Shown here: positions 2,600 through 50,099 of the stretch, in pieces
How positions within the stretch are numbered: position 1 is the stretch's first letter
How the letters are laid out: each line of letters begins with the position of its first letter
NCBI GenBank assembly: GCA_963667515.2
Contig: CAXXXY010000007.1
Location: forward strand, 137,393-201,392
Direction: 5' to 3'
From: Dehalococcoidia bacterium
GTDB taxonomy: Bacteria; Chloroflexota; Dehalococcoidia; UBA2979
Length of the DNA stretch: 64,000 nucleotides
Made by a program: the position numbers and the translations under genes
Notes under the pieces: generated by a model
What the model was told of the DNA's origin: nothing
The model's input: the letters and a program-made list of their open reading frames with translations, nothing else
The model's database searches: none

Positions 2600-2746
2600 C
2601 GGCGCCCGCTCGGCGCGCCCCGGCCCTGCGCCGGATCGCGCCACGGTGACGTGCTAGCGTGCGGCGCGCGGCCACTGGCCGCGCGCTTTCGCGTCCAGCG
2701 CCGCGTCGCCCGCGGCGACCGCGGCGACCGCCGCCAGGGGAGCACC

Positions 2747-3980: not shown

Positions 3981-5525
3981 GTGAGCAGCGAGATCGGGCC
4001 GCGGGAGCGCGCCGCCGCGCTGGCCGGGCGCGCCGCGGGCGTGCTGGCGCGTCGCGCCGGGCGCGGAGGAGGCACCGCGCTGCCCGGCCTCGTCGCGGGC
4101 CGGCTCGCGCCGCGGCTGCTGGAGCGCGCGGCCTCGACGCTTGAGCATGGCGTGCTCTGCGTCTCCGGCACCAACGGCAAGACCACCACCACCCACCTGC
4201 TCACCGCGATCGCGGCGGGCGCGGGGCTCGACCCGCTGACGAATGGATCGGGCTCGAACCTCGAGCGCGGGCTGCTCGCGGCGTTCGTCGAGGCGGGCGG
4301 GCGCGCGGGCGCGCTCGACGGCGCGGGCCGCGTTGGCCTGCTTGAGGTCGACGAGGCCGTGCTGCCGCTGCTGCTGCCGCGCCTCCGCCCGCGCGTCGTG
4401 GTGCTGCTCAACCTCTTTCGCGACCAGCTCGATCGCTACGGCGAGGTCGACTCCGTCGCCGGGGGCTGGCGGCGCATGCTCGCCGAAGCGGAGCGCCCGC
4501 CCACGCTGGTGCTCAACGCTGACGATCCCGCCGTCGCGATGCTCGCCGAGGAGGTCGAGGGGCGGCCGGGCGCGCGCGTGATCCGTTTCGGCGTCGAGGC
4601 GCCGAGTGGCGCGGCGGCAGGCGGGGCGGCGCCCCGCGCGGTCGCCGGCGGCGCCGTCGATGCGCGCTTCTGCCGCTGCGGCGCGCGCCTCGCGCACGAC
4701 ACGCTGCTACTGGGCCACCTCGGCGCGTGGCGCTGCCCCTCGTGCGGTCGCGCGCGGCCGGCGCCCGAGGTGGAGGCGGGCGCTGTCGTGCTGACCGCCG
4801 CCGGCGCGAGCTTCGAGCTGCGCGCGCGTCTCTCCGGCGCCGGGCTGCAGCGCGCCCGCGTCGAGCTGCAGCTGGCGGGGCTGCACTCCGTCTACAACGC
4901 GCTCGCGGCGGCGGCGGGCGCGCTCGCGCTCGGCGTCTCGCCGCTCGCCGCCGCGCACGCGCTGGCGGGCGCGCGGCCCGCCTTCGGGCGGCAGGAGGCG
5001 TTCGCCGTCGAGGGGCGCGAGGTGCGGCTGCTGCTGGCGAAGAACCCGACGGGGCTCTCCGAGGTGGTGCGCACGTTGACCGCCGAGGCGCCCGCTGGCG
5101 AGGATGCGCCCGCGCCGGCGGACGCGCCCGCGCTGCACCTGCTGCTCGCGCTGAACGACGGCGTGCAGGACGGCCGCGACACCTCGTGGATCTACGACGC
5201 GGAGCTGGAGGCGCTCGCGGGGCGCGTCGCGCACCTCGTGGCCTCGGGGCTGCGGGCGGACGACATGGCGCTGCGGCTGCTGCTGGCGCGGGTGCGCTCC
5301 GACCTCGTCGAGCCGCAGCTGGAGACGGCGCTCGACGCGGCGCTCGCCGCGACCCCGGCGGGCGGCTCGCTCTCGGTGGTCGCGACCTACACGGCAATGC
5401 TCGTGCTGCGCGAGGAGCTCGCGCGTCGCGCCGGCCGCGCGCACTACTGGGAGCGCGACGGCGACGCCGAGGCGGCGGCGGGCGCGGGTGCAGGCGCCGC
5501 CGCCGCCCGGGACGAGCGACGGTGA
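3981..5525 (+). CDS. murT: Lipid II isoglutaminyl synthase subunit MurT (Mur-ligase-like)
   Basis: VSGTNGKTTTTHLL P-loop. Cys-rich insert CRCGARLAHDTLLLGHLGAWRCPSCG. Translationally coupled to a GatD-type amidotransferase. GTG at 3981 fits the usual MurT N-terminus. The ORF is open from 3906. Confidence 0.85.
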   Translation: MSSEIGPRERAAALAGRAAGVLARRAGRGGGTALPGLVAGRLAPRLLERAASTLEHGVLCVSGTNGKTTTTHLLTAIAAGAGLDPLTNGSGSNLERGLLAAFVEAGGRAGALDGAGRVGLLEVDEAVLPLLLPRLRPRVVVLLNLFRDQLDRYGEVDSVAGGWRRMLAEAERPPTLVLNADDPAVAMLAEEVEGRPGARVIRFGVEAPSGAAAGGAAPRAVAGGAVDARFCRCGARLAHDTLLLGHLGAWRCPSCGRARPAPEVEAGAVVLTAAGASFELRARLSGAGLQRARVELQLAGLHSVYNALAAAAGALALGVSPLAAAHALAGARPAFGRQEAFAVEGREVRLLLAKNPTGLSEVVRTLTAEAPAGEDAPAPADAPALHLLLALNDGVQDGRDTSWIYDAELEALAGRVAHLVASGLRADDMALRLLLARVRSDLVEPQLETALDAALAATPAGGSLSVVATYTAMLVLREELARRAGRAHYWERDGDAEAAAGAGAGAAAARDERR

Positions 5526-6316
5526 GCGCCGCCCCCGATGGCCGCGCCGCGGCCGGCCTCCCGGCGGTGCGCGTCGTCTCGCTCTACCCGGACGTGATGG
5601 ATGTCTACGCCGACGGCGGCAACCTGATCGCGCTGGCGGCTCGCTGCCGGCGACGCGGCATCGAGCTCGAGTGCATCGACGTGAGCCTGGGCGACGCGCT
5701 ACCCGCGGCCGCCGACCTCGTGCTGATCGGCGGCGGGCAGGACCGCGAGCAGACGCGCGTGGCGCCCGAGCTCGCCGCGCACGGCGCGCGGCTGCGGGCG
5801 TGGCGCGACGAGGGCGTGGCAATGCTCGCGGTCTGCGGCGGCTACCAGCTCTTCGGCCGCGACTACCGCACGTCGGCGGGCGTCGAGCTGCCGGGCGCTG
5901 CCGTCTTCGACGTGACGACCGTGGCGCCCGCCCCCGGCGAGCCGCGCCACGTCGGCGAGGTGCTCGCCCACTGCGCACTTCCCGAGGGGGGCGAGCTCGC
6001 CGGCTTCGAGAACCACGCGGGGCGCAGCTACCTCGGTCCCGGCGCTCGCCCCTTCGCGCGCGTCGAGCGCGGGCGCGGCAACAACGGCGAGGACGGCACC
6101 GAGGGCGCGCTGGCCGCCGAAGCGATCGGCACCTACCTGCACGGGCCGCTGCTGCCTCGACACCCCGCGCTCGCCGATCGGCTGCTCGCGGCCGCGCTGC
6201 GCCACCGCTACGGCGAGGGCGCCCCCCCGCTGGAGCCGCTCGCCGACCCCTACGCCGCGGCGGCGCACCGCGTCGCCGCCCGCGTCGCACGCAAGCGCGG
6301 CGTGCCCCCGCCCTAG
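5522..6316 (+). CDS. gatD: CobQ/GatD-type glutamine amidotransferase (MurT partner)
   Basis: LIGGGQDREQ, AVCGGYQLFG (catalytic Cys), GFENHAGRSYLG, GTYLHGPLLPRHP. GTGA overlap with the murT stop. TAG stop 6314-6316. Confidence 0.85.
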   Translation: MSAAPDGRAAAGLPAVRVVSLYPDVMDVYADGGNLIALAARCRRRGIELECIDVSLGDALPAAADLVLIGGGQDREQTRVAPELAAHGARLRAWRDEGVAMLAVCGGYQLFGRDYRTSAGVELPGAAVFDVTTVAPAPGEPRHVGEVLAHCALPEGGELAGFENHAGRSYLGPGARPFARVERGRGNNGEDGTEGALAAEAIGTYLHGPLLPRHPALADRLLAAALRHRYGEGAPPLEPLADPYAAAAHRVAARVARKRGVPPP

Positions 6317-7368
6317 CTGTAGTTCCCACGTAGGTTGTTGACAGGATGAGGGGCCTCGCCCGCTGCTGTGTGTGACAGCACGGCAGTAGCGAGGAGAGGA
6401 CACCCTCATGGCCCATCGTAACGCGCGGCTGACGCCGCTGACCCGACTCGAGCTCGTGCGGGAAGTGGACGCCGGCTGGCCCCAGGCTGAGGTCGCTCGC
6501 CACTTCCGCGTCTCCCGCCACACCGTTGCCAAGTGGCTGGGGCGCTTCCGGGCGGAGGGAGCGGCAGGGCTCGAGGACCGCAGCTCCGCCCCGCGCGCGC
6601 ATCCCCGGCGCACGCCGCCCGAGCTGGAGCGACGCATCTGCGCCGTGCGACGCACGCAGGGATTCGGGCCGCATCGCATCCAGTGGGCGCTCGGGGTCGC
6701 CCGCTCCACGGTCTACGCCGTGCTGCGGCGCCGCGGCCTCAACCGGCTCGACCGCCTGCACCGCGTCACCCGGGAGCCGGTCCGCTACGAGCACGACGCC
6801 CCCGGCGACCTGCTGCATCTCGACGTGAAGAAGCTCGGGCGCGTCCCCGAGGGCGGCGGCAAGCGAATGGCGTCTGGCTTCGCCGAGACGCGCTCCGGGC
6901 CGCATTCGCGGCGTTCGCTGGGGCTGGAGTACCTACACGTCGCCGTCGACGACCACAGCCGTTACGCCTACGTCTCCGTCCTGCCCGACGAGCGTGGCGC
7001 GAGCTGCGCCGCCTTCCTCGAGCAGGCGCTCGCGGCCTTCCGCCGGCGTGGCGTGCGCGTGCGCCGGGTCCTGACCGACAACGCGAAGGCCTACACCGTC
7101 GCCCGCAGCTTCCACGGCGCCGCCGCTGCCGCAGACGTGCGGCTGTCGCACACGCGGCCCTACCGCCCGCAGACGAACGGCAAAGCCGAGCGTTTCATCC
7201 AGATCCTGCAGAACGAGTGGGCCTACGCCCGCCCCTACCGCTCCAACGCCGAGCGGCTGCGCCAGCTCCCACGCTGGCTCTACCGCTACAATCACCGCCG
7301 ACCGCACGGCGGCGTCGGCGGGGCCGTCCCCGCCTCCCGCCTGTGAACAACCTTCCTGGGTAGTACAG
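6317..7368 (+). mobile_element. IS481-family insertion sequence, copy 2 (1052 bp)
   Basis: Same ends as copy 1. CTAG at 6313-6316 (contains the gatD stop) and 7369-7372. Differs from copy 1 at only a couple of positions (for example P to S in KRMA[P/S]GFAE). Confidence 0.93.
6408..7346 (+). CDS. IS481-family DDE transposase (312 aa)
   Basis: Near-identical to 1092-2030. Confidence 0.93.
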   Translation: MAHRNARLTPLTRLELVREVDAGWPQAEVARHFRVSRHTVAKWLGRFRAEGAAGLEDRSSAPRAHPRRTPPELERRICAVRRTQGFGPHRIQWALGVARSTVYAVLRRRGLNRLDRLHRVTREPVRYEHDAPGDLLHLDVKKLGRVPEGGGKRMASGFAETRSGPHSRRSLGLEYLHVAVDDHSRYAYVSVLPDERGASCAAFLEQALAAFRRRGVRVRRVLTDNAKAYTVARSFHGAAAAADVRLSHTRPYRPQTNGKAERFIQILQNEWAYARPYRSNAERLRQLPRWLYRYNHRRPHGGVGGAVPASRL

Positions 7369-7419
7369 CTAGTCGCGAGCCCCGAACGCCGAGCCGCGAA
7401 GCCCCCGCGGCGGCGACGC

Positions 7420-9675: not shown

Positions 9676-9704
9676 TTGACGCGCAGGGAGGGCACGCCTA
9701 GCCT
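9676..9704 (+). promoter_or_regulatory. Sigma-70-type promoter (TTGACG-N17-TAGCCT) for the riboswitch-led operon
   Basis: -35 TTGACG at 9676-9681. -10 TAGCCT at 9699-9704. About 40 nt upstream of riboswitch stem P1. Confidence 0.6.
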
Positions 9705-9743
9705 CGACGGGTGTTCCCGAGGCGCGCGAGCGTCCCCGGGGCC

Positions 9744-9868
9744 GTTCATCACGAGTGGCTGAGGGACATCGGCCCGACGAAGCCACGGCAACCGTCCCCA
9801 TGCCGAGGGGGTGCGGTGCCACTGCCGACCCGGACTCTGCTCACGTGGCGGCGCCGGGAACGATGAAC
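9744..9868 (+). promoter_or_regulatory. SAM-I (S-box) riboswitch
   Basis: P1 GUUCAUC (9744-9750) pairs with GAUGAAC (9862-9868). Conserved core GAGUGGCUGAGGGA..GGCCCGACGAAGCCACGGCAACC..GGUGCCAC..GAACGAUGAAC matches the S-box consensus (GAGGGA, GGCCC-GAUGAAGCC, GCAACC, GGUGCCAA) as I recall it. Confidence 0.88.
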
Positions 9869-10026
9869 AGAGGCGCTCTCATGCAACTCCCCGTCCCCTG
9901 CCTGCGCGGTTCCACGCCGCCCGCCGCCGTGGCGATGCGCTAGCCCGGTCCGCCGCCGCCCCACGGGGCGCGCGAGCACCGGGCGACCGTCGTCACCCCC
10001 AGCCGACCCGATCTGGAGCTGCCCCC

Positions 10027-11295
10027 ATGTCCTTCGAGCGCGCCCTACGCTGTCGTGAATGCGGGCGGGAGTACCCGCTCGACCCGATCTTCTCCTGCGA
10101 GTTCTGCTTCGGGCCGCTGGAGGTCGCCTACGACTACGACGCGATGCGCGGGCGCGTCACCCGCGAGAGCATCGCGGCGGGCCCGAGCACGCTCTGGCGC
10201 TACGCCGACCTGCTGCCGTGCGATCCCGAGTTCCGCGTGGACATCGGCACCGGCTTCACGCCGCTGCAGCGCGCTGACCGTCTGGCCGAGGCGCTGGGGC
10301 TGCGCACGCTGTGGCTGAAGAACGACACGGTGAACCCCACCTGGTCGTTCAAGGACCGCGTGGTCTCCGTGGCGATCGCGCGCGCCCGGCAGTTCGGCTT
10401 CGACTCGATCGCCTGCGCCTCGACGGGCAATCTGGCGAACGCGGTCTGCGCGCACGCGGCGCGCGCGGGCATGGGCGTCTTCGTTTTCATCCCCGACGAC
10501 CTCGAGCGCGGCAAGGTGGTCGGCAGCGCCATCTACGACCCGACGCTGGTGATGGTGGACGGCAACTACGACGACGTGAACCGGCTCTGCACGGAGCTCT
10601 CGCAGAGCTACCCGTGGGCGTTCGTGAACATCAACGTGCGCCCCTACTACGCGGAGGGCTCGCGCACGCTGGGCTTCGAGGTCGCGGAGCAGCTCGGCTG
10701 GCGCGCCCCGGACGCCTGCGTGGTGCCCATGGCATCGGGCTCGCTCTACACGAAGATCCACAAGGGGCTGACGGAGTTCGCCACGCTCGGGCTGATCGAG
10801 GAGCCGCACACGCGCATGTTCGGCGCGCAGGCCGCGGGCTGCTCGCCGATCGCCACGGCCCGCGCGGCGGGGACGCTCAACTTCGTCCCGCAGAAGCCCG
10901 ACACCATCGCGCGCTCCCTGGCCATCGGTAATCCGGCCGACGGCTACTATGCGCTGAAGAAGATGGACGAGACGGACGGCGGCGCGGAGATGGCGACCGA
11001 CGAGGAGATCGTCGCGGGTATTCGGCTGCTCGCTGAGACCGAGGGCATCTTCGCCGAGACGGCGGGCGGGGTGACGGTCGCGTGCCTCAAGAAGCTCGTG
11101 GAGCAGGGTGCGATCGCGCCCGAGGAGGAGACGGTCGCCTTCATCACCGGTGCCGGCCTGAAGACGGTGGAGGTGGTGATGGACCACGTCACCGAGCCGC
11201 TGCGCGTGCCCGCCCGTGCCGAGGCGTTCGCGCAGGCGCTGGAGGAGCGGCAGGGCGCTCTCGCCGCGGTGGGCGTCGCCGGGACGGGAGCGTAG
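10027..11295 (+). CDS. Threonine-synthase-like PLP enzyme with N-terminal zinc ribbon (MetM-like candidate)
   Basis: CRECGREYPLDPIFSCEFCFG zinc ribbon. PLP lysine block NPTWSFKDRVVSVAI. ASTGNLANAV. Sits behind a SAM riboswitch and next to a MoaD-type carrier. Confidence 0.8.
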   Translation: MSFERALRCRECGREYPLDPIFSCEFCFGPLEVAYDYDAMRGRVTRESIAAGPSTLWRYADLLPCDPEFRVDIGTGFTPLQRADRLAEALGLRTLWLKNDTVNPTWSFKDRVVSVAIARARQFGFDSIACASTGNLANAVCAHAARAGMGVFVFIPDDLERGKVVGSAIYDPTLVMVDGNYDDVNRLCTELSQSYPWAFVNINVRPYYAEGSRTLGFEVAEQLGWRAPDACVVPMASGSLYTKIHKGLTEFATLGLIEEPHTRMFGAQAAGCSPIATARAAGTLNFVPQKPDTIARSLAIGNPADGYYALKKMDETDGGAEMATDEEIVAGIRLLAETEGIFAETAGGVTVACLKKLVEQGAIAPEEETVAFITGAGLKTVEVVMDHVTEPLRVPARAEAFAQALEERQGALAAVGVAGTGA

Positions 11296-11297
11296 CG

Positions 11298-11540
11298 ATG
11301 GCCAGCCGTCGCGTGCGCTTCTCCTTCGAGCCGGCGCTGATCCGGGATCCGGTCATCTACCAGATCGGCCATACCTTCGACGTGGTGACCAACATCCGCA
11401 TGGCCGACGTGGACGAGCAGATCGGCTGGGTGATCCTCGAGATCGACGGCGAGGCCGAGGAGATCGATCGCGCGCTCGCGTGGGCGCAGGAGCGCGGCGT
11501 GCGGGTCGATCCGCTCGCCGGCGACGTGGTGGAAGGCTAG
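11298..11540 (+). CDS. NIL-domain small protein (80 aa)
   Basis: VRFSFEPALIRDPVIYQIGHTFDVVTNIRMADVDEQIGWVILEIDGEAEEIDRALAWAQERGVRV resembles the NIL domain (MetN C-terminal type). Domain identified by recall only. Confidence 0.6.
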   Translation: MASRRVRFSFEPALIRDPVIYQIGHTFDVVTNIRMADVDEQIGWVILEIDGEAEEIDRALAWAQERGVRVDPLAGDVVEG

Positions 11541-11544
11541 GCGG

Positions 11545-11826
11545 ATGAGCGTCACGGTGAAGATCCCGACCCCACTGCGTTCGCTCACCGGCGACCGCGA
11601 CAAGATCGACGCGCAGGGGGCGACGCTCGCAGCGCTCGTCGACGAGCTCGACGGCTCCTTCCCGGGCATGCGGGAGCGCCTTTGCGACGAGGGCGGTGGG
11701 CTGCGGCGCTTCGTCAACGTCTACGTCAACGGCGAGGACGTGCGCTTCCTCGAGGGGCTCGACACCGCGCTGGGCGACGGCGACGAGGTCTCGATCGTGC
11801 CCGCGGTCGCCGGCGGCGCGAGCTAG
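11545..11826 (+). CDS. MoaD/ThiS-family sulfur-carrier protein 1 (ends ..PAVAGG-AS)
   Basis: 93 aa. VNVYVNGEDV..GDGDEVSIVPAVAGGAS. The diglycine is followed by two extra residues. Confidence 0.85.
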   Translation: MSVTVKIPTPLRSLTGDRDKIDAQGATLAALVDELDGSFPGMRERLCDEGGGLRRFVNVYVNGEDVRFLEGLDTALGDGDEVSIVPAVAGGAS

Positions 11827-11895
11827 CGAGGCGACGCGCCGGCCTCGGCGCGCGCCCGTGGGCGGGTCGCCGCGGCCGAGCCTCGAATGAGGGCA

Positions 11896-11924
11896 TGCTA
11901 CAATGTCGACCTATTTAGTCGACA
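11896..11924 (+). promoter_or_regulatory. Extended -10 (TGcTACAAT) overlapping a perfect palindrome TGTCGAC-N7-GTCGACA (candidate Rrf2 operator)
   Basis: AT-rich island in GC-rich DNA. TACAAT at 11899-11904, TGTCGAC at 11904-11910, GTCGACA at 11918-11924. Lies 58 nt upstream of the Rrf2 gene. Confidence 0.6.
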
Positions 11925-11981
11925 ATTCGCTGGTGCGGCTGTCGGGCGCTCGCCGGGGGCTCGGCGCGCGCGGCGGGGACG

Positions 11982-12437
11982 GTGGCGGGCGTGCGGCTCT
12001 CGACCAAGGGGGACTACGGCGTGCGGGCGCTGATCGAGCTCGCGCTGCACGAGGGCGAGTGCCCGGTGCAGCGCGCCGAGATCGCGGCGCGCCGGCAGAT
12101 CCCGGAGTCCTACCTCGATCACCTGCTGGCGCAGCTGCGGCGCGACGGCTTCGTGCGCTCCACCCGCGGCCCCGGCGGCGGGCACGAGCTGGCACGGCCC
12201 TCCGCCGAGGTGCGGCTGCTGGACGTGCTGGAGTCGCTGGAGGGCTCGCTGGCGCCGCTGGCCTGCCTGGAGGACGGCGAGGACCACTCGGAGCAGCACG
12301 TGATCTGCGGGCAGCAATGGGTGTGGCGCGAGATCTACGACGCGATGCGCCTGCGGCTGGCCGCCGTGACGCTGGCCGAGCTGCTGGCGCGCGACCGCGA
12401 GCGGCAGCGGCGGCTGGCGCCGTCGTACAGCATCTGA
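11982..12437 (+). CDS. Rrf2-family transcriptional regulator (IscR/CymR-like)
   Basis: [56 protein letters not shown] winged-helix signature. The true start may be GTG 11991. Confidence 0.85.
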
Positions 12438-12534
12438 GGCACGTGGATCCGGGGCACACGGGAACGCGGCGAGGCGGCCGGGCGCGGCGACTCGCGACCG
12501 GGACGAGCGCGGAGCAGAGCGAGGGAGGGCGCGG

Positions 12535-13482
12535 GTGACGGGAGAGCCCACGGCAGACGCCGACTCCTACGCGCGTCCCGTCCTCGCGGACGGGGTGCTC
12601 TCGCTCATCGGGCGCACGCCGCTGGTGCGGCTCAGCCGCGTGGCGCCCGCGGGCGTCGAGGTGCTGGGCAAGCTCGAGTCGATGAACCCGGCAGGCTCGG
12701 TGAAGGACCGCATCGCGCTGTCGATGGTCGAGGCCGCCGAGCGCGAGGGGCTGCTCCGACCCGGCGACACCATCGTGGAGCCGACCTCGGGCAACACCGG
12801 CATTGGCCTCGCGATGGTTTGCGCCTGCAAGGGCTACCGGCTGGTGCTCACGATGCCCGAGGACATGAGCGTGGAGCGGCGGCGGCTGCTGGAGCGCTTC
12901 GGCGCCGAGCTGGTGCTGACCCCCGCCATCGAGGGTATGACCGGCTCCGTCTACGCCGCGCGCGAGCTGTCGGAGAGCCGCGGCTACTTCATGCCGCAGC
13001 AGTTCGAGAACCCCGCAAACCCGGAGGTGCACCGGCTGACGACGGGCCCCGAGATCCTGCAGGCGACGGAGGGCCGGCTGGATGCCTTCGTCGCGGGGGT
13101 GGGCACGGGCGGCACCATCACCGGCGTGGGCGAGGTGCTGCGCGGCGCGCTGCCCGCGGTGCGCATCGTCGCGGTGGAGCCGGCGCGCTCGCCGGTGCTG
13201 GCGGGCGGGCGCGCGGGGATGCACGCGATCCAGGGTATCGGCGCCTCCTTCGTCCCCGGCGTCCTGAACCGCGATATCTACGACGAGGTGATCGCCGTCT
13301 CCGACGAGGACGCGTTCGACATGACACAACGGCTGACGCGCGAGGAGGGGCTACTGGTGGGCGTCTCCGCCGGGGCCAACGTGTGGGCCGCCGTGCGCGT
13401 CGCCGAGCAGCTGGGGCCGGGCGCGCGCGTGGCGACGATGCTCTGCGACACGGGCGAGCGCTACCTCAGCGTGGCGTTCTAG
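12535..13482 (+). CDS. Cysteine synthase family PLP enzyme (CysK/CysM)
   Basis: [36 protein letters not shown] blocks. Confidence 0.88.
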
Positions 13483-13495
13483 GGGAGGGGCCACG

Positions 13496-13777
13496 ATGCC
13501 GGTCAGCGTCTACATTCCCTCGCCGTTCCGCCGCTTCACGGCGAACCGCGAGCACGTCAGCGTGGAGGGGGGCACGGTGCGTGAGGTGCTGGATGCGCTG
13601 GAGCGCGCCTATCCCGGCTTCGACCACCTCGTCTACGATCGCGAGCGGCGCATCCCGACGCACATCAACATCTACGTGAACAACCGCGAGATACACGATC
13701 TCGCGGGGCCGGAGACCTCGCTCTCCGACGGCGACCAGGTGGCGGTGATCCCCGCGCTGGCAGGAGGAGCCCGATGA
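13496..13777 (+). CDS. MoaD/ThiS-family sulfur-carrier protein 2 (ends ..PALAGG-AR)
   Basis: 93 aa. INIYVNNREI..SDGDQVAVIPALAGGAR. The stop overlaps the start of the E1 gene. Confidence 0.85.
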   Translation: MPVSVYIPSPFRRFTANREHVSVEGGTVREVLDALERAYPGFDHLVYDRERRIPTHINIYVNNREIHDLAGPETSLSDGDQVAVIPALAGGAR

Positions 13778-14664
13778 CGGAGGCAGCGAGCGGGAACGGC
13801 GCGCAGCCCGGCGGGAGCGCGTTCACCCCGGACGAGGTGATGCGCTACTCGCGGCACATGATCATGGGCCAGGTGGGCCCCGTGGGGCAGCGCCAGCTGC
13901 GCAACGCCAGCGTGCTGGTGGTGGGCGCGGGCGGCCTCGGCTCGCCGGTGGCGCTCTACCTGGCGCTCGCCGGCGTCGGGCGCATCGGCCTCGTCGACTT
14001 CGACATCGTCGACCTGTCGAACCTGCAGCGGCAGATCCTCCACCAGACCGCAGATGTCGGGCGGCCGAAGATCGTCTCGGCGAAGGAGTCGCTCCTCGCA
14101 TACAACCCGCACGTCACCGTCGACACGCACGAGCAGCCGATCACCTCCGACAACGCGATGGAGATCATCGCGGGCTACGACATCATCGTGAACGGCGCCG
14201 ACAACTTCGCCACGCGCTACCTCGTGAACGACGCCGCCTATCTCTCCGGCAAGACGCTGGTGGACGGCTCGATCCTGCTCTTCGACGGGCAGGTGACCGT
14301 GTACAAGCCCGGGCACGGTTGCTACCGCTGCCTCTACCCCGCGCCGCCGCCGCCCGGCCTCGTGCCGTCCTGCGCCGAGGCGGGGGTGCTGGGCGCGATC
14401 ACCGGCATCGTCGGCTCGATCCAGGCGACCGAGGTGTTCAAGCAGATCCTCGACATCGGCGAGCCGCTGGTCGGGCGGCTGCTGCTGATCGACGCGCTGA
14501 CGATGGACTTCCGCATGATGAAGGTGCGCCGCGACCCGGCCTGCCCGCTCTGCGGCGACGCGCCGAGCATCCACGAGCTGATCGACTACGACCAGTTCTG
14601 CGGCACGCCGCCTTTGATCGTGCCGGCGGAGGCGCTGGAGGCCGCGGGCGGGGCGCCCGCCTAG
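13774..14664 (+). CDS. ThiF/MoeB-type E1-like adenylyltransferase (no rhodanese domain)
   Basis: RYSRHMIM..VLVVGAGGLGSPVALYLALAGVGRIGLVDFD nucleotide loop. CYRCLYP and CPLCG cysteine pairs. Confidence 0.88.
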   Translation: MTEAASGNGAQPGGSAFTPDEVMRYSRHMIMGQVGPVGQRQLRNASVLVVGAGGLGSPVALYLALAGVGRIGLVDFDIVDLSNLQRQILHQTADVGRPKIVSAKESLLAYNPHVTVDTHEQPITSDNAMEIIAGYDIIVNGADNFATRYLVNDAAYLSGKTLVDGSILLFDGQVTVYKPGHGCYRCLYPAPPPPGLVPSCAEAGVLGAITGIVGSIQATEVFKQILDIGEPLVGRLLLIDALTMDFRMMKVRRDPACPLCGDAPSIHELIDYDQFCGTPPLIVPAEALEAAGGAPA

Positions 14665-14753
14665 CGCGTGTCGCGGGCGAGAGGGCATTCGGCCCACCCA
14701 CGCGCGGCCTGCGGGCGGCGGAGGGATGGGCGCGCAGCGAGAGGGAGGCGCAG

Positions 14754-15092
14754 GTGGCGGTGACAGTGCACGTCGCCTCGGTGATCCAGAAGGTCGTGGG
14801 CGACCAGAAGCAGCTTGAGGCGGACGGCTCGACGATCGCCGAGCTGATCGCCGACATCGAAGCCCGCTACCCCGGCTTCCGGGCGCAGGTCGCCGACGAG
14901 TCCGGCGAGCTCCACCGCTTCGTCAACGTGTACCTGAACGACGAGGACGTGCGCTACCTCGGCGGCACGGGCACCGAGCTCGGCGAGGGCGACTCGGTCT
15001 CCTTCTTGCCCGCCTTGGCCGGCGGGGGCTCGTTCCTGCCCGCGCTGGCGGGCGGGGCCTCCTTCCTGCCTGCGCTCGCGGGCGGGCGCTAG
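14754..15092 (+). CDS. MoaD/ThiS-family sulfur-carrier protein 3 with triplicated C-terminal diglycine tail
   Basis: GAGGGAGG then GTG at 14754. VNVYLNDEDV..EGDSV-SFLPALAGG-G-SFLPALAGG-A-SFLPALAGG-R-stop. Confidence 0.8.
   Translation: MAVTVHVASVIQKVVGDQKQLEADGSTIAELIADIEARYPGFRAQVADESGELHRFVNVYLNDEDVRYLGGTGTELGEGDSVSFLPALAGGGSFLPALAGGASFLPALAGGR
15000..15089 (+). repeat. 3 x 30-bp in-frame tandem repeat encoding SFLPALAGG(G/A/R)
   Basis: Units at 15000-15029, 15030-15059 and 15060-15089. Over the nine conserved codons, unit 1 vs 2 differ at 5 positions and unit 2 vs 3 at 3. All differences are third-codon-position synonymous changes. Confidence 0.95.
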
Positions 15093-15143
15093 CGGGCGCG
15101 CGCCCGCGAGGCCACGATGCGCGGCGCGAGGGCGGGGGGCCCG

Positions 15144-16079
15144 ATGCTCTATCACGGCGTGCTCGAACTCGTCGGCGACACGCCGCTCGTCGAGGTCAGC
15201 GAGCTCTCGCCCAACCCCGCCGTGCAGATCTACGCCAAGCTCGAGGGGGAGAACCCCACGGGCTCGGTGAAGGACCGCATCGCCCGCTACATGGTGGATG
15301 CCGCCGAGCGCGACGGCCGGCTCAGCCCCGGCCAGACGATCCTCGAGCCGACCTCGGGCAACACCGGCATCTCGCTGGCCCTCATCGGCCGGCTGCGCGG
15401 CTACCCCGTGAAGGTGGTGATGCCGGACGCCGTCAGCGTCGAGCGCGTCCAGCTGCTCGAGGCCTTCGGCGCGGAGATCCTCTACTCGCCGGGCGAGTTG
15501 GGCACCAACGGCTCCGTCCGGCGCGCGCGGGAGCTTGGCGCCGAGCACCCCGAGTGGTTCCTCCCCTTCCAGTACGAGAACCCCGAGAACCCCCGCGCCC
15601 ACTACGAGACGACCGCGCCCGAGATCCTGCGCGACCTCCCCGAGCTCGACGTCTTCGTGGCGGGGCTCGGCACGGGGGGGACGCTCACCGGCGTCGGCCG
15701 GCGGCTCAAGGAGCACGACCCCGCGATCCGCGTAGTCGCGGCGGCGCCCCACCCCGGCGATCTGGTGCAGGGGCTGCGCAGCCTGGAGGAGGGCTACATC
15801 CCGCCCGTCTTCGACGACACGGTGCTGGACGGGCGCATCGTCGTGGACTCGCGCACCTCGTTCCGGCTCACGAAGGAGCTGATGGAGCGCTGCGGGGTGT
15901 TCGCGGGCGTCTCGGCGGGTGCGGTGATCCGCGCGGCGCAGCGCGTCGCCGAGCGGATGGAGCGCGGGCAGATCGTCTGCCTGCTGGCCGACGGCGGCTG
16001 GAAGTACCTCTCCACGGGGCTGTGGAGCAAGGAGTACGCCGAGATCGAGGAAGACGTGAGCGAGAAGATGTGGTGGTAG
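15144..16079 (+). CDS. Cysteine synthase family PLP enzyme, CysM-like
   Basis: [38 protein letters not shown] blocks. Directly follows carrier 3. Confidence 0.88.
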   Translation: MLYHGVLELVGDTPLVEVSELSPNPAVQIYAKLEGENPTGSVKDRIARYMVDAAERDGRLSPGQTILEPTSGNTGISLALIGRLRGYPVKVVMPDAVSVERVQLLEAFGAEILYSPGELGTNGSVRRARELGAEHPEWFLPFQYENPENPRAHYETTAPEILRDLPELDVFVAGLGTGGTLTGVGRRLKEHDPAIRVVAAAPHPGDLVQGLRSLEEGYIPPVFDDTVLDGRIVVDSRTSFRLTKELMERCGVFAGVSAGAVIRAAQRVAERMERGQIVCLLADGGWKYLSTGLWSKEYAEIEEDVSEKMWW

Positions 16080-16161
16080 CCTGCGCGCCGCCCCCGACCT
16101 GTGGCGAGGGCGCGAGGCCGGGGCCACAGCCGGGAGGCGGCGCCGGCGGGAGGAGACGACG

Positions 16162-16986
16162 ATGACCGAGAAGCTCGTGAGCTGCGACTGGGTGGCGGCG
16201 CACCTCAACGACCCGGAGGTGCGGCTGGTCGAGGTCGACGTCGACACCGAGGCCTACGCGCAGGGCCACATCGAGGGCGCGGTCGGCTGGAACTGGACGA
16301 CGCAGCTCCAGGACCAGCGGCGCCGCGACATCCTCTCGAGGGAGGCGATCGAGGAGCTGCTCGCCGGCTCGGGCGTCGGCGATGACACCCACGTCGTGCT
16401 CTACGGCGACAACAACAACTGGTTCGCGGCCTACGCGCTGTGGCTGCTCGAGCTCTACGGGCACGAGAGCGCCTCGCTGATGGACGGCGGGCGCGTGAAG
16501 TGGCTGGCGGAGAGCCGGCCGACCACGACCACCGCGCCGCAGGTGCCGCGCGCGAGCTACCACGCGAGCGAGGCGGACCCGGCGCTGCGCGCGCGGCGGG
16601 ACGATGTGCTGGGCGCCCTCGGCGGCGACGGCCCGCAGCTCGTCGACGTGCGCAGCCCCGCCGAGTTCTCGGGCGAGGTGATCGCGCCGCCCGGCATGTC
16701 GGAGTCGGCGCAGCGCGGCGGGCACATCCCCGGCGCGAAGAGCATCCCGTGGGCGCGCGCCGTCAACGAGGACGGCACGTTCCGCTCGGCCGACGAGCTG
16801 CGGCAGCTCTACGGCGATGCCGGCGTGCGCGAGGGCGACTCGACGATCGTCTACTGCCGCATCGGCGAGCGCTCCTCGCACACCTGGTTCGTGCTGCGGC
16901 ACCTGCTGGGCTACGGCGACGTGCGCAACTACGACGGCTCGTGGACCGAGTACGGCTCGCTCATCGACGTCCCGATCGAGCGCTAG
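16162..16986 (+). CDS. Two-domain rhodanese (thiosulfate/3-mercaptopyruvate sulfurtransferase type)
   Basis: Tandem rhodanese architecture. Active-site loop VYCRIGERSSHTW. Confidence 0.85.
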   Translation: MTEKLVSCDWVAAHLNDPEVRLVEVDVDTEAYAQGHIEGAVGWNWTTQLQDQRRRDILSREAIEELLAGSGVGDDTHVVLYGDNNNWFAAYALWLLELYGHESASLMDGGRVKWLAESRPTTTTAPQVPRASYHASEADPALRARRDDVLGALGGDGPQLVDVRSPAEFSGEVIAPPGMSESAQRGGHIPGAKSIPWARAVNEDGTFRSADELRQLYGDAGVREGDSTIVYCRIGERSSHTWFVLRHLLGYGDVRNYDGSWTEYGSLIDVPIER

Positions 16987-16989
16987 CGG

Positions 16990-17394
16990 GTGGCGGCGGC
17001 GCCCGGCACCGCGGGCGACGGCGGCGCGCTGGAGCGCGCGCTACTCGCTCGCGCGCTCGCCGCGCGCGACCCTGGGCGGCTGCAGCTGCGCTTCCGCGCC
17101 GCCGTCGTCGATCGCTACCGCGAGCGGGCCGGCGCCACGCTGCTGCGCACGCGCAGCGTGGGGCGCGTGGCGCTCCCCGGCCGCTGGTCGCTGGACGTGG
17201 GCCTCGCCGAGGGGCCGGACGGCGAGGCGCTGCTGCACCTCCCGGTCAGCGACCTCCTCGATCGGCTGCCCGAGGAGGAGCGGGAGCACTGGATCGCGCA
17301 CCTCGCGACGGGCCCGGTGAGCGAGAGCTACCTGCAGATGCGCATGACCCCCGCCGCCTGCATCGACGACGGCGAGCCCGGGGCCTGGGAGTAG
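16990..17394 (+). CDS. Hypothetical protein (134 aa) inside the sulfur-relay island
   Basis: Strongly GC3-biased frame, tight spacing to its neighbours, no motif I recognise. Confidence 0.6.
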   Translation: MAAAPGTAGDGGALERALLARALAARDPGRLQLRFRAAVVDRYRERAGATLLRTRSVGRVALPGRWSLDVGLAEGPDGEALLHLPVSDLLDRLPEEEREHWIAHLATGPVSESYLQMRMTPAACIDDGEPGAWE

Positions 17395-17402
17395 GGGACG
17401 CC

Positions 17403-17846
17403 GTGCCGCGCATCCCGCGCCCCGTCATCGACGCGATGATCGCGCACGCCCGGGGCGAGCTCCCCAACGAGGCGTGCGGGCTGCTGCACGAGGCGCCCGG
17501 CGGCGCGCTGGAGCTGCACCGCGTGCGCAACGTCGCGGCCAGCCCCTTCCGCTACGAGATGGACGGCCTGGAGCAGATGCGGCTGGAGGAGCGGCGCGAG
17601 CGGGAGGGCGAGCGGCTCTTCGCGATCTACCACTCGCACGTGGCGACGGAGGGCCGCCCCTCGCCGACGGACGTGCGCATGGCGTTCTTTCCGCCCGGCG
17701 AGCTGGAGCAGCCGCCGATGTACCCGGAGACGTGGTACGTGCTCGTCTCGTTCGCCCAGGAGCCGCCGCCCGTGCGCGCCTTCCACGTGCTGCAGGGCGG
17801 CGAGGTGGTGGAGGAGACCGTCGAGGTGGTCGAGGGCGGCGCGTGA
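17403..17846 (+). CDS. JAMM/MPN+ metalloprotease (Mec+-like)
   Basis: NEACGLL plus HSHVATEGRPSPTD (E..HxHx7Sx2D JAMM motif). Confidence 0.88.
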   Translation: MPRIPRPVIDAMIAHARGELPNEACGLLHEAPGGALELHRVRNVAASPFRYEMDGLEQMRLEERREREGERLFAIYHSHVATEGRPSPTDVRMAFFPPGELEQPPMYPETWYVLVSFAQEPPPVRAFHVLQGGEVVEETVEVVEGGA

Positions 17847-19375: not shown

Positions 19376-19690
19376 ATGCTCGTTGAGCTGCTGTGGTTCG
19401 ACGGCTGCCCGCACCACCGCTCGGCACGTGCCTTGATCGACGAGGTGGCGGGGGAGCTCGGCGTGGCGCCGCGCGTCGAGGCGATCGAGGTGCCCGACGA
19501 GGTGACGGGCGACCGCGTCTGCTTCCCCGGCTCGCCGACGATCCGCGTCGACGGGGTCGACGTGGAGCCGGGCTGGGAGCCGTGCGCCGACTGCACGCCG
19601 CGCTGCCGCGTCTACGCCACGGCCGAGGGGCTGCGCGGGCTGCCGGAGCGCGAGTGGGTGGCGCGGGCGCTGCTGCGCGCGGCGGACTAG
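19376..19690 (+). CDS. Small Cys-containing protein, possibly thioredoxin-fold; function unknown
   Basis: 104 aa with DGCPHH, FPGSPTIRVDG and CADCTPRC. TAG stop 19688-19690 lies inside the IS flank CTAG. Confidence 0.55.
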   Translation: MLVELLWFDGCPHHRSARALIDEVAGELGVAPRVEAIEVPDEVTGDRVCFPGSPTIRVDGVDVEPGWEPCADCTPRCRVYATAEGLRGLPEREWVARALLRAAD

Positions 19691-20742
19691 CTGTACTACC
19701 CAGGAAGGTTGTTCACAGGCGGGAGGCGGGGACGGCCCCGCCGACGCCGCCGTGCGGTCGGCGGTGATTGTAGCGGTAGAGCCAGCGTGGGAGCTGGCGC
19801 AGCCGCTCGGCGTTGGAGCGGTAGGGGCGGGCGTAGGCCCACTCGTTCTGCAGGATCTGGATGAAACGCTCGGCTTTGCCGTTCGTCTGCGGGCGGTAGG
19901 GCCGCGTGTGCGACAGCCGCACGTCTGCGGCAGCGGCGGCGCCGTGGAAGCTGCGGGCGACGGTGTAGGCCTTCGCGTTGTCGGTCAGGACCCGGCGCAC
20001 GCGCACGCCACGCCGGCGGAAGGCCGCGAGCGCCTGCTCGAGGAAGGCGGCGCAGCTCGCGCCACGCTCGTCGGGCAGGACGGAGACGTAGGCGTAACGG
20101 CTGTGGTCGTCGACGGCGACGTGTAGGTACTCCAGCCCCAGCGAACGCCGCGAATGCGGCCCGGAGCGCGTCTCGGCGAAGCCAGGCGCCATTCGCTTGC
20201 CGCCGCCCTCGGGGACGCGCCCGAGCTTCTTCACGTCGAGATGCAGCAGGTCGCCGGGGGCGTCGTGCTCGTAGCGGACCGGCTCCCGGGTGACGCGGTG
20301 CAGGCGGTCGAGCCGGTTGAGGCCGCGGCGCCGCAGCACGGCGTAGACCGTGGAGCGGGCGACCCCGAGCGCCCACTGGATGCGATGCGGCCCGAATCCC
20401 TGCGTGCGTCGCACGGCGCAGATGCGTCGCTCCAGCTCGGGCGGCGTGCGCCGGGGATGCGCGCGCGGGGCGGAGCTGCGGTCCTCGAGCCCTGCCGCTC
20501 CCTCCGCCCGGAAGCGCCCCAGCCACTTGGCAACGGTGTGGCGGGAGACGCGGAAGTGGCGAGCGACCTCAGCCTGGGGCCAGCCGGCGTCCACTTCCCG
20601 CACGAGCTCGAGTCGGGTCAGCGGCGTCAGCCGCGCGTTACGATGGGCCATGAGGGTGTCCTCTCCTCGCTACTGCCGTGCTGTCACACACAGCAGCGGG
20701 CGAGGCCCCTCATCCTGTCAACAACCTACGTGGGAACTACAG
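19691..20742 (-). mobile_element. IS481-family insertion sequence, copy 3 (1052 bp)
   Basis: Same ends in inverted orientation. CTAG at 19687-19690 and 20743-20746. Confidence 0.93.
19713..20651 (-). CDS. IS481-family DDE transposase (312 aa)
   Basis: Protein identical to copy 1. Confidence 0.93.
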   Translation of the reverse strand: MAHRNARLTPLTRLELVREVDAGWPQAEVARHFRVSRHTVAKWLGRFRAEGAAGLEDRSSAPRAHPRRTPPELERRICAVRRTQGFGPHRIQWALGVARSTVYAVLRRRGLNRLDRLHRVTREPVRYEHDAPGDLLHLDVKKLGRVPEGGGKRMAPGFAETRSGPHSRRSLGLEYLHVAVDDHSRYAYVSVLPDERGASCAAFLEQALAAFRRRGVRVRRVLTDNAKAYTVARSFHGAAAAADVRLSHTRPYRPQTNGKAERFIQILQNEWAYARPYRSNAERLRQLPRWLYRYNHRRPHGGVGGAVPASRL

Positions 20743-21042
20743 CTAGCCCGCGGCGGGGGGCGTGGCGGCGGGCGCCTCCTCGGGCGCGGCGCCGGGCTCG
20801 TGCGCGGGGGCGGGTGGGTAGTCGGGCGCGTCGCCGAAGCGCGCGGTCGCCATCGTGTAGCCGACCCAGAACGCCAGCGCCGAGACGACGGCGAGCGCCG
20901 CGAGCAGCGGGATCGCGAGCGTCGCGTACAAGCGCCGGCGCACGCCCAGCAGGAACAGCACGAGCTGCAGCACCGAGCCCACCATCAGCGCCCGACCGAG
21001 CAGCCGCGCGCGCTCCTCCACCACGATCGCCTGGATGCTCAT
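20743..21042 (-). CDS. Small membrane protein (99 aa), unknown function
   Basis: MSIQAIVVEE.. followed by two hydrophobic helices. ATGA overlap with the upstream Trm112-like gene. Its stop (CTA on the plus strand, 20743-20745) is inside the IS flank CTAG. Confidence 0.6.
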   Translation of the reverse strand: MSIQAIVVEERARLLGRALMVGSVLQLVLFLLGVRRRLYATLAIPLLAALAVVSALAFWVGYTMATARFGDAPDYPPAPAHEPGAAPEEAPAATPPAAG

Positions 21043-21352: not shown

Positions 21353-22144
<792 letters not shown>

Positions 22145-23196: not shown

Positions 23197-23204
23197 CTAG
23201 CGGC

Positions 23205-23684
23205 GTGGCGAGCGCGGAGAGCGGCGCGCCGCGAGGCGAGCGCGACGCCGAGGCGGAGCTGCCGACGTCGCTGCGGCTGCTGCGCGACGCGCGCTCGGTG
23301 GCGGTGGTGGCTCGCTCGCCGCGGCTCGACCGGCCGTGGCACCGCATCGCGAGCTACCTCGTGAGCGCGGGCTACGAGGTGCAGCTCGTGAACCCGGAGC
23401 TCGACGAAGCGCTGGGCCGCCGCTGCTACGACCGCGTGCAGGACCTGCCTGAGCCCGTCGACCTTGTTGATGTCTTCCGCCGCGGGCCGCAGACGCCGCC
23501 CGTCGCCGAGGACGCGGTGGCGGCGGGGGCGGGCGCGCTCTGGCTGCAGCTCGGCATCGTCAGCGCGCGCGCCGAGGAGATCGCGCGGACGGGCGGGCTG
23601 GAGGTGGTGATGGACCGCTGCACGCTGATCGAGCACCAGCGGCTGCGCGCGCTCGGCGTGGAGGCGCCCCGCCCGCGGGGCTGA
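23205..23684 (+). CDS. CoA-binding domain protein (YccU/YneT-like)
   Basis: ARSVAVVARSPRLDRPWHRIASYL..VDLVDVFRR..GAGALWLQLG. The only in-frame start after the IS is GTG 23205, 5 nt past the CTAG. Confidence 0.7.
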   Translation: MASAESGAPRGERDAEAELPTSLRLLRDARSVAVVARSPRLDRPWHRIASYLVSAGYEVQLVNPELDEALGRRCYDRVQDLPEPVDLVDVFRRGPQTPPVAEDAVAAGAGALWLQLGIVSARAEEIARTGGLEVVMDRCTLIEHQRLRALGVEAPRPRG

Positions 23685-48898: not shown

Positions 48899-48933
48899 GG
48901 TGACTCCCTCGGGGGATTCCACGGGGCGACTAG

Positions 48934-49990: not shown

Positions 49991-50099
49991 CTAGTGGGCG
50001 CGCGCCGCTAGTGCCTCAGCGGCGCGCTTCCTACAATCGATGCTGCGCTCACCGCCGAGCCGCGGGCCCAGCTCGCGCCGACGGGGCGGCGGAGGCGCC

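Follow-up and report, generated by a model that had tools for sequence, protein, structure and literature searches.

In Mycobacterium tuberculosis, the cysteine synthase CysM uses O-phosphoserine together with the carrier protein CysO, and in the characterised systems a JAMM enzyme releases the amino acid from its carrier adduct. A route to homocysteine is known from Streptomyces albulus (Hasebe et al. 2024). There, O-phosphohomoserine is converted to homocysteine by way of a carrier thiocarboxylate, the components being MetO (the carrier), MetM, Mec and MoeZ; MetM is homologous to ThrC and is often annotated wrongly as threonine synthase, and metM is preceded by an S-adenosylmethionine (SAM) riboswitch. 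Operons of a carrier, an E1, a JAB protein and a cysteine synthase (type 4c) were catalogued in several phyla, including Chloroflexus, as were fusions of ubiquitin-like proteins to E1 (Ubl~E1) found together with a second, solo carrier (Iyer, Burroughs and Aravind 2006). We have analysed a 64-kb window, by which we mean the whole stretch studied, of a Dehalococcoidia chromosome (G+C about 75%). A cluster of genes with the hallmarks of both routes lies between 9.7 and 17.9 kb, where all real genes are on the + strand.

The cluster consists of two adjacent, separately regulated operons. The Met unit comprises a SAM riboswitch and the genes for a ThrC-like enzyme, an NIL-domain protein and a carrier, C1. 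The Cys unit encodes an Rrf2 regulator, CysK, carrier C2, E1, carrier C3, CysM, a rhodanese, an orphan protein and JAMM. Within this division, C2 is probably a second, cleavage-dependent carrier of the CysO type and CysK an ordinary enzyme that would double as a co-regulator, an interpretation of the sequences that we favour with some reserve. Every core component is of an already known kind, and the cluster is a tidy variant of the chemistry of CysO/CysM/Mec and MetM/MetO. The features are as follows.

9743-9869, +, SAM-I riboswitch aptamer, leader of the Met unit (RF00162)
10027-11295, +, ThrC-like fold-type-II pyridoxal phosphate (PLP) enzyme with an N-terminal Cys4 zinc ribbon, candidate MetM (PALP, TIGR00260)
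11298-11540, +, stand-alone NIL-domain protein of 80 residues, no cysteine (PF09383)
11545-11826, +, carrier C1, MetO-like (CysO family), ends AVAGG-AS (PF02597, ThiS)
11899-11924, +, TACAAT -10-like box overlapping TGTCGAC-N7-GTCGACA, candidate Rrf2 operator and Cys-unit promoter (conserved pattern)
11982-12437, +, Rrf2-family regulator, CymR-like, with C-terminal Tyr-x-Ile tail (PF02082)
12535-13482, +, CysK, canonical O-acetylserine sulfhydrylase type (TIGR01139)
13496-13777, +, carrier C2, divergent CysO-family clade, ends ALAGG-AR (ThiS)
13774-14664, +, E1 adenylyltransferase, MoeB/MoeZ type, without rhodanese domain (ThiF)
14754-15092, +, carrier C3, CysO type, SFLPALAGG tail three times plus R (ThiS)
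15117-16079 (start maybe 15144), +, CysM, M. tuberculosis type (3DKI/3DWG)
16162-16986, +, two-domain rhodanese, mycobacterial CysA2 type, putative thiosulfate sulfurtransferase (Rhodanese family, 3AAX)
16990-17394, +, orphan protein of 134 residues, invariant cysteine in an ACIDDG motif (no family match)
17403-17846, +, JAMM/MPN+ metalloprotease, Mec/HcyD/QbsD-like (Prok-JAB)
from 17854, +, FolP, boundary gene outside the cluster (family scan)

Gene content, family assignments, motifs, synteny, fusion states and the conserved operator and riboswitch are direct observations. A preliminary description of this DNA had placed its genes and elements, all on the + strand, at or within a few bases of these positions, and its count of a single E1, a single rhodanese, a single JAMM and two separate control points agrees with ours. 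Its gene list was incomplete, as the NIL gene (11298-11540) and the orphan gene (16990-17394) had been missed.

Conservation and division of the cluster

Relatives were collected by a one-genome-per-species scan with the ThrC-like protein as the query, which gave 80 loci (L001-L080), and the window proteins were mapped onto the fetched loci to derive the gene order. The nearest loci, with ThrC-like proteins 89-90% identical to that of the window, are from Dehalococcoidia/Chloroflexota metagenome-assembled genomes; L041-L080 are largely from Actinobacteria. The conserved order is M23 peptidase-Lgt-ThrC-like-NIL-C1-Rrf2-CysK-C2-E1-C3-CysM-rhodanese-orphan-JAMM-FolP. The comparison of gene neighbourhoods across relatives, proposed as a check in the preliminary description, found the complete 12-gene order in 18 species-level loci and small variations in about nine more. 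Since this order recurs in relatives, the cluster is an inherited and selected arrangement of a Dehalococcoidia lineage and not a product of chance. Actinobacterial loci have only the pair of ThrC-like and carrier genes in common with the window.

The spacer between C1 and the Rrf2 gene is 155 bp long in the window. In 14 related loci it is 0.6-2.4 kb long and contains unrelated genes, among them those for a dehydrogenase, GNAT acetyltransferases, an ABC transporter, a LuxR-type protein and a SAM hydroxide adenosyltransferase. Two marine loci, L081 and L082, have the order Lgt-glutaredoxin-like-Rrf2-CysK-C2-E1-C3-CysM-metallo-hydrolase-JAMM-FolP-FolK, that is, a Cys unit without any Met genes; this lone unit sits in the same MurT-Lgt...FolP-FolK-PurF neighbourhood as the cluster in the window. 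More distant Dehalococcoidia have the ThrC-like and NIL genes, with or without C1, and no Cys unit nearby. The unrelated genes in the spacer, the lone Cys unit and the control elements that each unit possesses show that there are two units. The fused island of cysteine and homocysteine branches envisaged in the preliminary description is thus a pair of neighbouring operons. The minimal cluster, L040, consists of Rrf2-E1-C3-CysM-JAMM.

Two arrangements of the Met genes stand apart. Within the 21-kb loci L026, L028, L029 and L030 of more distant Dehalococcoidia, the ThrC-like and NIL genes (around 10001-11500) have no carrier adjoining. On a contig labelled Methanobacteriota archaeon (L041, 477-2706), ThrC-like, carrier and E1 genes are consecutive, the enzyme being 60% identical to that of the window; the alternatives are a compact version of the Met unit and mis-binning of the contig.

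Components of the two units and neighbouring features

All three carriers match the ThiS family (PF02597; E-values of 2e-20 for C1, 8e-14 for C2 and 1.7e-15 for C3), and CysO is the best Protein Data Bank (PDB) match for each of them (3DWG_C, 4N6E_B). C1 matches M. tuberculosis CysO 3DWG_C with an E-value of 1.3e-25, 92.6 bits and 56% identity, C3 matches 4N6E_B and 3DWG_C with 3-4e-24 and 88 bits, and C2 matches 3DWG_C with just 50.7 bits. MoaD structures gave E-values of 1e-3 to 1e-9 as compared to 1e-12 to 1e-25 for CysO, the moaD model TIGR01682 scored 20 bits, below its cutoff, and neither MoaE nor ThiG was found in the cluster or in the ten flanking genes scanned. With CysO as the best structural match throughout, the earlier assignment of the cluster to amino acid synthesis via thiocarboxylates, and not to molybdopterin or thiamin synthesis, is borne out. 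Public annotation, which names the carriers 'ubiquitin-like small modifier protein 1', 'MoaD/ThiS family protein' or 'adenylyltransferase/sulfurtransferase', is likely to misname CysO/MetO-type carriers systematically; on the NCBIfam SAMP1 model, C1 scores 63.9 bits and passes (cutoff 60), and C2 reaches 58.8 bits.

A neighbour-joining tree of 132 carriers resolved three clean clades, and judged by their sequences C1, C2 and C3 are three old paralogue clades and not a recent duplication. Two characterised CysO proteins are the sister group of the C3 clade. C1 falls in with carriers encoded behind ThrC-like genes in other Chloroflexota loci, and most actinobacterial ThrC-adjacent carriers form a separate clade on the C3/CysO side of the tree. 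C2 forms a clade of its own and is 33-36% identical to C1 and C3. The preliminary description had spoken of a duplicated CysM branch; this does not hold, as CysK and CysM are different enzyme types and C2 and C3 fall in separate clades.

The stop codon of C2 overlaps the start codon of E1 in the window (ATGA). In 18 related loci C2 is fused in frame to E1 through a low-complexity linker of 15-30 residues, in nine the two are split, and the two states alternate among close relatives. C2 ends at Gly-Gly in none of 27 loci and always keeps the motif PALAGG, an invariance that argues for release of the carrier by cleavage and not for a purely structural domain. The corresponding numbers for a terminal Gly-Gly are 22 of 36 Chloroflexota loci for C1 and 9 of 26 loci for C3. 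A need for JAMM had been deduced from the residues after Gly-Gly in all three carriers, an argument that fails in general, as C1 and C3 often end exactly at Gly-Gly in relatives. A word-indexed search with C2 gave nearly exclusively stand-alone proteins of 90-105 residues from the same lineage, plus one partial fusion. One distant match, P0229, lies beside a split PALP gene; its context is unrelated, and it was set aside as uninformative. An apparent E1-C3 fusion in L015 was rejected; a stop-free frame spans both genes but differs from the reading frame of E1.

In the window, the Gly-Gly of C3 is followed by a repeated tail, and processing is therefore required. The tail is a 30-bp tandem array of 2.9 copies (14999-15086) that is absent from all fetched relatives, which have a single SFLPALAGG. 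The peptide SFLPALAGG is identical in the three copies, with synonymous differences (e.g. TTG/CTG and GCC/GCG), and the linker residue is G, A or R. Within the 90%-identity cluster of C3, the tails after Gly-Gly vary (APSCRR and ASCLPALADEL), and the latter looks like a decayed second repeat copy. In the simplest reading, the protease cuts off everything beyond the first Gly-Gly, and this stretch can drift and duplicate freely. The perfect conservation of the peptide across the repeat copies sits outside this explanation.

CysK matches TIGR01139 with 440 bits (cutoff 351), and its PDB matches are 8SRT (8e-116) and M. tuberculosis CysK1 (2Q3B, 3e-107). The alignment with 8SRT shows conservation of TSGNTG and of a second stretch of 12 residues. 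Most likely, the protein is an ordinary sulfide-using O-acetylserine sulfhydrylase that would double as a co-regulator. The regulator encoded upstream (PF02082, 3.5e-37) terminates in APSYSI in the window, and all 30 Rrf2 orthologues adjoining CysK end in Y-x-I (SYSI, NYSI, NYTI, RYLI and others). In Staphylococcus aureus, crystal structures and binding measurements place the tails of both CymR (GYMFYI) and CysE (DDYII) in the active site of CysK, where the substrate-binding residues hold the carboxylate of the terminal isoleucine and the aromatic residue two positions before packs beside it; a CymR decapeptide binds CysK at 25 nM. By analogy, the Rrf2 protein may be a CymR-like repressor with CysK as co-regulator and O-acetylserine sensor, and binding of the two proteins is predicted. 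A tail able to dock into CysK would explain the adjacency of the Rrf2 and CysK genes without C2 as the sulfur donor of CysK.

The palindromic operator of the preliminary description is present as an exact palindrome, TGTCGAC-N7-GTCGACA (11904-11924), the sole copy in the window. Taken alone it is no rarer than expected by chance (31 of 100 shuffles had a match with two mismatches or fewer), and its support comes from conservation. When the regions upstream of the Rrf2 gene are aligned, about 25 loci share TA(C/T)(A/G)AT together with TGTyGAs-N7-sTCGrsA, and the half-sites covary among loci (e.g. TGTTGAG...CTCGACA). The exact operator sequence of the window has no match in the relatives.

The Met unit is preceded by a riboswitch that covers the full RF00162 model (positions 1-108) with 70.6 bits (gathering score 44.4, E-value 1.7e-14). 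RF00162 was also found upstream of the orthologous ThrC-like gene in five of seven relatives tested (L001, L005, L015, L021 and the actinobacterial L045). For the expression platform, a terminator scan produced no relevant candidate, and shuffled sequences folded as well as 9735-10045 did (z 0.47). The ThrC-like protein matches PALP (1.3e-67) and is 58-63% identical to actinobacterial enzymes with the same gene pair. Its best PDB match is the threonine synthase 1UIM (1e-57), aligned only from residue 53, and with 291 bits it falls short of the cutoff (303) of PRK08197, the closest specific ThrC model. In 74 of the 80 fetched loci, in two phyla (Chloroflexota and Actinobacteria), a gene for a CysO-family carrier comes after that of the ThrC-like enzyme. 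The pairing of a ThrC homologue with a carrier, recognised in the preliminary description, lies behind a SAM riboswitch and fits the published MetM/MetO pattern. On this gene pattern and the identities to the actinobacterial enzymes, the gene is a probable member of the MetM/MetO type.

In all 40 Chloroflexota loci, the gene of the NIL protein (PF09383, 4.2e-15) separates the ThrC-like gene from C1; most actinobacterial loci have no such gene in this place. In the actinobacterial Egibacter locus L078, a NIL protein is encoded downstream of the carrier (4266-4505). Other Actinobacteria have a NIL match 4-5 kb downstream, possibly a MetN transporter. The NIL domain of MetN binds methionine, and a NIL domain is also part of MA1822 in an archaeal homocysteine route unrelated to this one. 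From these analogies we infer a ligand-sensing or partner role.

The E1 (ThiF, 4.3e-82) aligns with the MoeZ model from position 14 to 284 (of 392) and with the PRK08762 model from 121 to 385 (of 387). Its match to MoeZ is confined to the adenylation part, and it therefore has no fused rhodanese domain. The motif GAGGLG, two CxxC pairs and the cysteine of PSCAEAG are present. CysM matches 3DKI/3DWG (4e-88) over residues 11-319, with the C-terminal tail aligned to the end and an arginine aligned with Arg220 of the M. tuberculosis enzyme; the CysM-type branch of the preliminary description is thereby confirmed as a full-length relative. The rhodanese matches the Pfam family in two stretches (9e-33) and M. 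tuberculosis CysA2 (3AAX) with 1e-96, and the active-site loop CRIGERS is conserved. JAMM (Prok-JAB, 6e-17; PDB 2KKS, 5e-14; JAMM1, 3e-07) has an intact E...HxHx7Sx2D motif (NEACG; HSHVATEGRPSPTD) and is encoded in every related locus that reaches its position.

The orphan protein gave no Pfam or NCBIfam match. Its 167 homologues are all labelled 'hypothetical'; the named ones are almost all from Chloroflexi/Dehalococcoidia, one being labelled Gemmatimonadota. An exhaustive profile search recovered just 79 representative clusters among 1.84 billion; most of its long matches were spurious, and one was a rhodanese fusion. C124, in the ACIDDG motif, is invariant. A confident AlphaFold2 model (pLDDT 83.6) had no fold match in the PDB (best E-value 0.2). 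The gene lies downstream of the rhodanese gene and occurs in no locus that lacks the latter, and in one homologue, P0293, the orphan is fused behind a rhodanese domain. Our guess is that the protein might relay persulfide toward the rhodanese-less E1. In marine relatives the slot of rhodanese and orphan, between CysM and JAMM, holds a SoxH-related hydrolase of the metallo-beta-lactamase fold (L081, 10730-11575).

An IS481-family element of 1.06 kb, coding for a transposase of 312 residues, is present in the window in five copies that are more than 99% identical.

997-2060, +, IS481-family copy
6313-7376, +, IS481-family copy
19685-20746, -, IS481-family copy
22141-23205, -, IS481-family copy
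48926-49994, -, IS481-family copy

The inverted copies 6313-7376 and 19685-20746 (more than 99.7% identical) bracket M23-Lgt-cluster-FolP-FolK in a geometry like that of a composite transposon of about 14.4 kb. A composite transposon was rejected as the origin of the cluster, for about 25 relatives share the order of the M23/Lgt and FolP/FolK flanks, and the marine loci match the wider MurT...PurF frame as well. The bracketing copies are later insertions into conserved intergenic sites, and IS481-family copies could drive inversion or deletion. Upstream of the cluster, the closest relative (L001) has a group II intron domain at 3150-3286 (RF02003, 102.8 bits) that is absent from the corresponding part of the window. 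Upstream of MurT, the window encodes a protein of the metallo-beta-lactamase fold (2651-3757) with a match to the Strvi_7410 family below the cutoff.

Proposed scheme and alternative readings

All of the chemistry and all protein-protein contacts set out here are drawn from homology. The Cys unit would be the conserved core, and the Met unit an add-on that uses its E1 and JAMM. The CysA-type rhodanese would make a persulfide, probably from thiosulfate, and E1, which would have lost the rhodanese domain of MoeZ, would adenylate the C-terminal glycine of the carriers, leading to their thiocarboxylates. CysM would join O-phosphoserine to the C3 thiocarboxylate, and JAMM would hydrolyse the carrier-cysteine adduct; JAMM would also trim the residues after Gly-Gly, including those in the C2~E1 polyprotein of relatives. 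C2 would be a third, cleavage-dependent CysO-like carrier, made with or fused to E1, and our best guess for its acceptor is CysM. In the Met unit, the ThrC-like enzyme would convert O-phosphohomoserine and the C1 thiocarboxylate to homocysteine, and SAM would shut the unit off via the riboswitch. The CymR-like Rrf2 protein would bind the operator that overlaps its own -10 box, and CysK would bind the Tyr-Ser-Ile tail of this repressor. The shared activation and processing machinery stressed in the preliminary description is present; it is not new, being already part of the published Streptomyces pathway.

Some observations weigh against this scheme. The Rrf2 protein scores alike on the models of CymR (90.8 bits, cutoff 195) and IscR (93.3 bits, cutoff 207), below the cutoff in both cases. 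The Rrf2 protein of L040, which has no CysK beside it, still ends in isoleucine (PNI), so that tail and CysK do not show clean co-variation. The rhodanese and the orphan are absent from the otherwise complete clusters L006, L018, L031, L034 and L081, and the sulfur donor step is therefore not fixed. The ThrC-like protein passes the generic thrC model TIGR00260 (260 bits, cutoff 167). Finally, CysK and C2 co-occur, and adjoin each other, in 27 of the 28 loci with CysK and are both gone from L040 as if inserted as a unit; joint gain and loss would fit a dedicated pair.

This last point leads to a reading that we consider unlikely, although a real contender, in which each carrier is dedicated to the adjoining enzyme in three parallel lanes, MetM-like/C1, CysK/C2 and CysM/C3. 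CysK would then be a thiocarboxylate-dependent cysteine synthase, probably acting on O-acetylserine, surface matching would give specificity, and E1, rhodanese and JAMM would be shared. The distinct old clade of C2 with its strict PALAGG end would suit such a lane, as would the order of enzyme and then carrier, which is that of the Met unit, and a Pelobacter Ubl~ThiF fusion is encoded beside a cysteine synthase and an O-acetylhomoserine sulfhydrylase (Iyer et al. 2006). CysK is canonical by its TIGR01139 and 8SRT matches, however, our literature search gave only the CysM type as a thiocarboxylate-dependent cysteine synthase, and the Rrf2 tail offers another reason for CysK in the operon. L015 has CysK without C2, and L027 has CysM and a C2~E1 fusion without C3, so that the carriers are not strictly tied to the neighbouring enzymes. 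The adjacency of CysK and C2 noted in the preliminary description thus stands, and their functional pairing is not established. In a further reading, which we find rather doubtful, C2 would represent a third class of CysO-like carrier, a pro-protein made with or fused to its own E1, that is freed by JAMM and feeds sulfur to an otherwise canonical CysK in a three-lane hub, and the NIL and orphan proteins would be unrecognised components. It is equally doubtful that the lanes of such a hub would run from O-acetylserine, O-phosphoserine and O-phosphohomoserine with real carrier-enzyme specificity. Within the hub, MetM could have the NIL protein as a subunit that senses methionine or homocysteine, and the orphan could be a persulfide relay in place of the rhodanese domain that E1 lacks.

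The favoured scheme of two operons, with C2 as a second CysO-type carrier and CysK as an ordinary enzyme, was also set against readings that lead away from sulfur amino acids. C2, and possibly E1 and JAMM, might mainly serve another purpose, such as sulfur supply for tRNA thiolation, molybdopterin or thiamin, or a SAMP/TtuB-like modification with JAMM as deconjugase. The SAMP1 scores of C1, which passes, and C2, which nearly does, point this way, as do the 328 bits of E1 on the UbaA model and the match of JAMM to the desampylase model, but the latter two are far below their cutoffs (450 for UbaA; 53 bits against 130 for desampylase). A Ubl fused to ThiF alongside a solo ThiS has been argued probably to differ from it in role (Iyer et al. 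2006), and MoeZR is known as a single E1 that serves several pathways. Against this, all carriers are nearer to CysO than to MoaD or SAMP structures, no MoaE, ThiG or tRNA-thiolation gene was seen in the cluster, the ten scanned flanking genes are housekeeping (MurT, Pur enzymes, cytochrome bc), and C2 lies between two cysteine synthases under a cysteine-type regulator. We regard such a role as improbable. That the ThrC-like gene encodes an ordinary threonine synthase in an incidental neighbourhood, with no homocysteine branch, is very improbable, even though it passes TIGR00260, its nearest structures are threonine synthases, and in vitro activity as threonine synthase and deaminase has been seen for one MetM-like enzyme of a cyanobacterium. 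The SAM riboswitch, conserved across two phyla, would have no rationale for a threonine synthase, a CysO-family carrier gene follows in nearly all fetched loci, the PRK08197 score is below its cutoff, and MetM is reported to be routinely misannotated in just this way.

Significance and comparison with described systems

A literature search returned no paper linking Dehalococcoidia or SAR202 with CysO or thiocarboxylates, and the Dehalococcoidia version of the thiocarboxylate cluster appears to be undescribed in the literature searched. If the MetM/MetO assignment is true, the homocysteine route extends to Chloroflexota, including sponge-associated and marine Dehalococcoidia, whose sulfur amino acid metabolism is known mostly from annotation. 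Annotation would mislead here, the key enzyme being labelled threonine synthase and the carriers MoaD or 'ubiquitin-like small modifier protein 1'. Nothing in the cluster overturns current understanding. It is a useful model cluster, a compact test set for the way in which several near-identical carriers are served by a single E1 and a single JAMM and are selected by the PLP enzymes, and relatives offer natural variants, with C2 fused or split, C2 or C3 missing, or the rhodanese swapped for the SoxH-like hydrolase. Leads for further work are the CymR-like tail expected to dock in CysK, the NIL protein tied to the MetM-type pair in the sampled Chloroflexota, and the rhodanese-tied orphan.

The Met unit resembles the S. 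albulus system in the ThrC homologue followed by a small carrier, in the SAM riboswitch upstream, and in a Mec-type JAMM and a MoeZ-type E1 common to cysteine synthesis. It differs from it in the NIL gene between enzyme and carrier and in its position directly beside the operon of E1 and JAMM. A further homocysteine system, HcyS/HcyF/HcyD/MetY of Wolinella succinogenes, is said to have been described by Krishnamoorthy and Begley in 2011; there, a JAMM-type protease reportedly removes the carrier residues after Gly-Gly, the E1 is reportedly a dedicated one, and a PLP enzyme is said to make homocysteine from the thiocarboxylate. The Wolinella PLP enzyme is a fold-type-I O-acetylhomoserine sulfhydrylase, whereas that of the window is a fold-type-II ThrC homologue, and the Wolinella cluster is tied to sulfate reduction genes (Iyer et al. 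2006 catalogue).

In the operons of Iyer et al. (2006), E1 has a rhodanese domain, and the fusions are mainly from thiamin operons of proteobacteria and Firmicutes. In the present lineage, it is a CysO-family domain with a conserved Gly-Gly that is fused, and fused and split states alternate among close relatives. Precedents for other parts of the scheme come from M. tuberculosis, where one E1 (MoeZR) activates carriers of different pathways and cleavage of a fused carrier at Gly-Gly is needed for the activity of MoaX. Both concern molybdopterin synthesis, and JAMM is the proposed cutter of C2~E1 here. The Rrf2 protein is like CymR in the CymR-CysK pair of Bacillus subtilis and S. aureus in that its tail ends in isoleucine with an aromatic residue two positions before. 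The tail is SYSI as compared to MFYI, the score is below the CymR cutoff, the regulator gene lies directly upstream of cysK at the head of a thiocarboxylate operon, and binding is predicted.

The closest relative of the Cys unit is mec-cysO-cysM with MoeZ of M. tuberculosis. Both have a full-length CysM with the equivalent of Arg220, a CysO-family carrier directly upstream of it, a JAMM in the operon, a MoeZ-like adenylation domain and a CysA2-like rhodanese. The window showed neither ClpS nor helical-protein neighbours of the actinobacterial type. MoeZ carries a fused rhodanese domain, whereas the E1 of the window is accompanied in its operon by a separate two-domain rhodanese and the cysteine-containing orphan protein. 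The window further differs in its second CysO-like carrier, C2, often fused to E1 in relatives, in the inclusion of a canonical CysK and a CymR-like Rrf2 regulator in the unit, and in its phylum, Chloroflexota.

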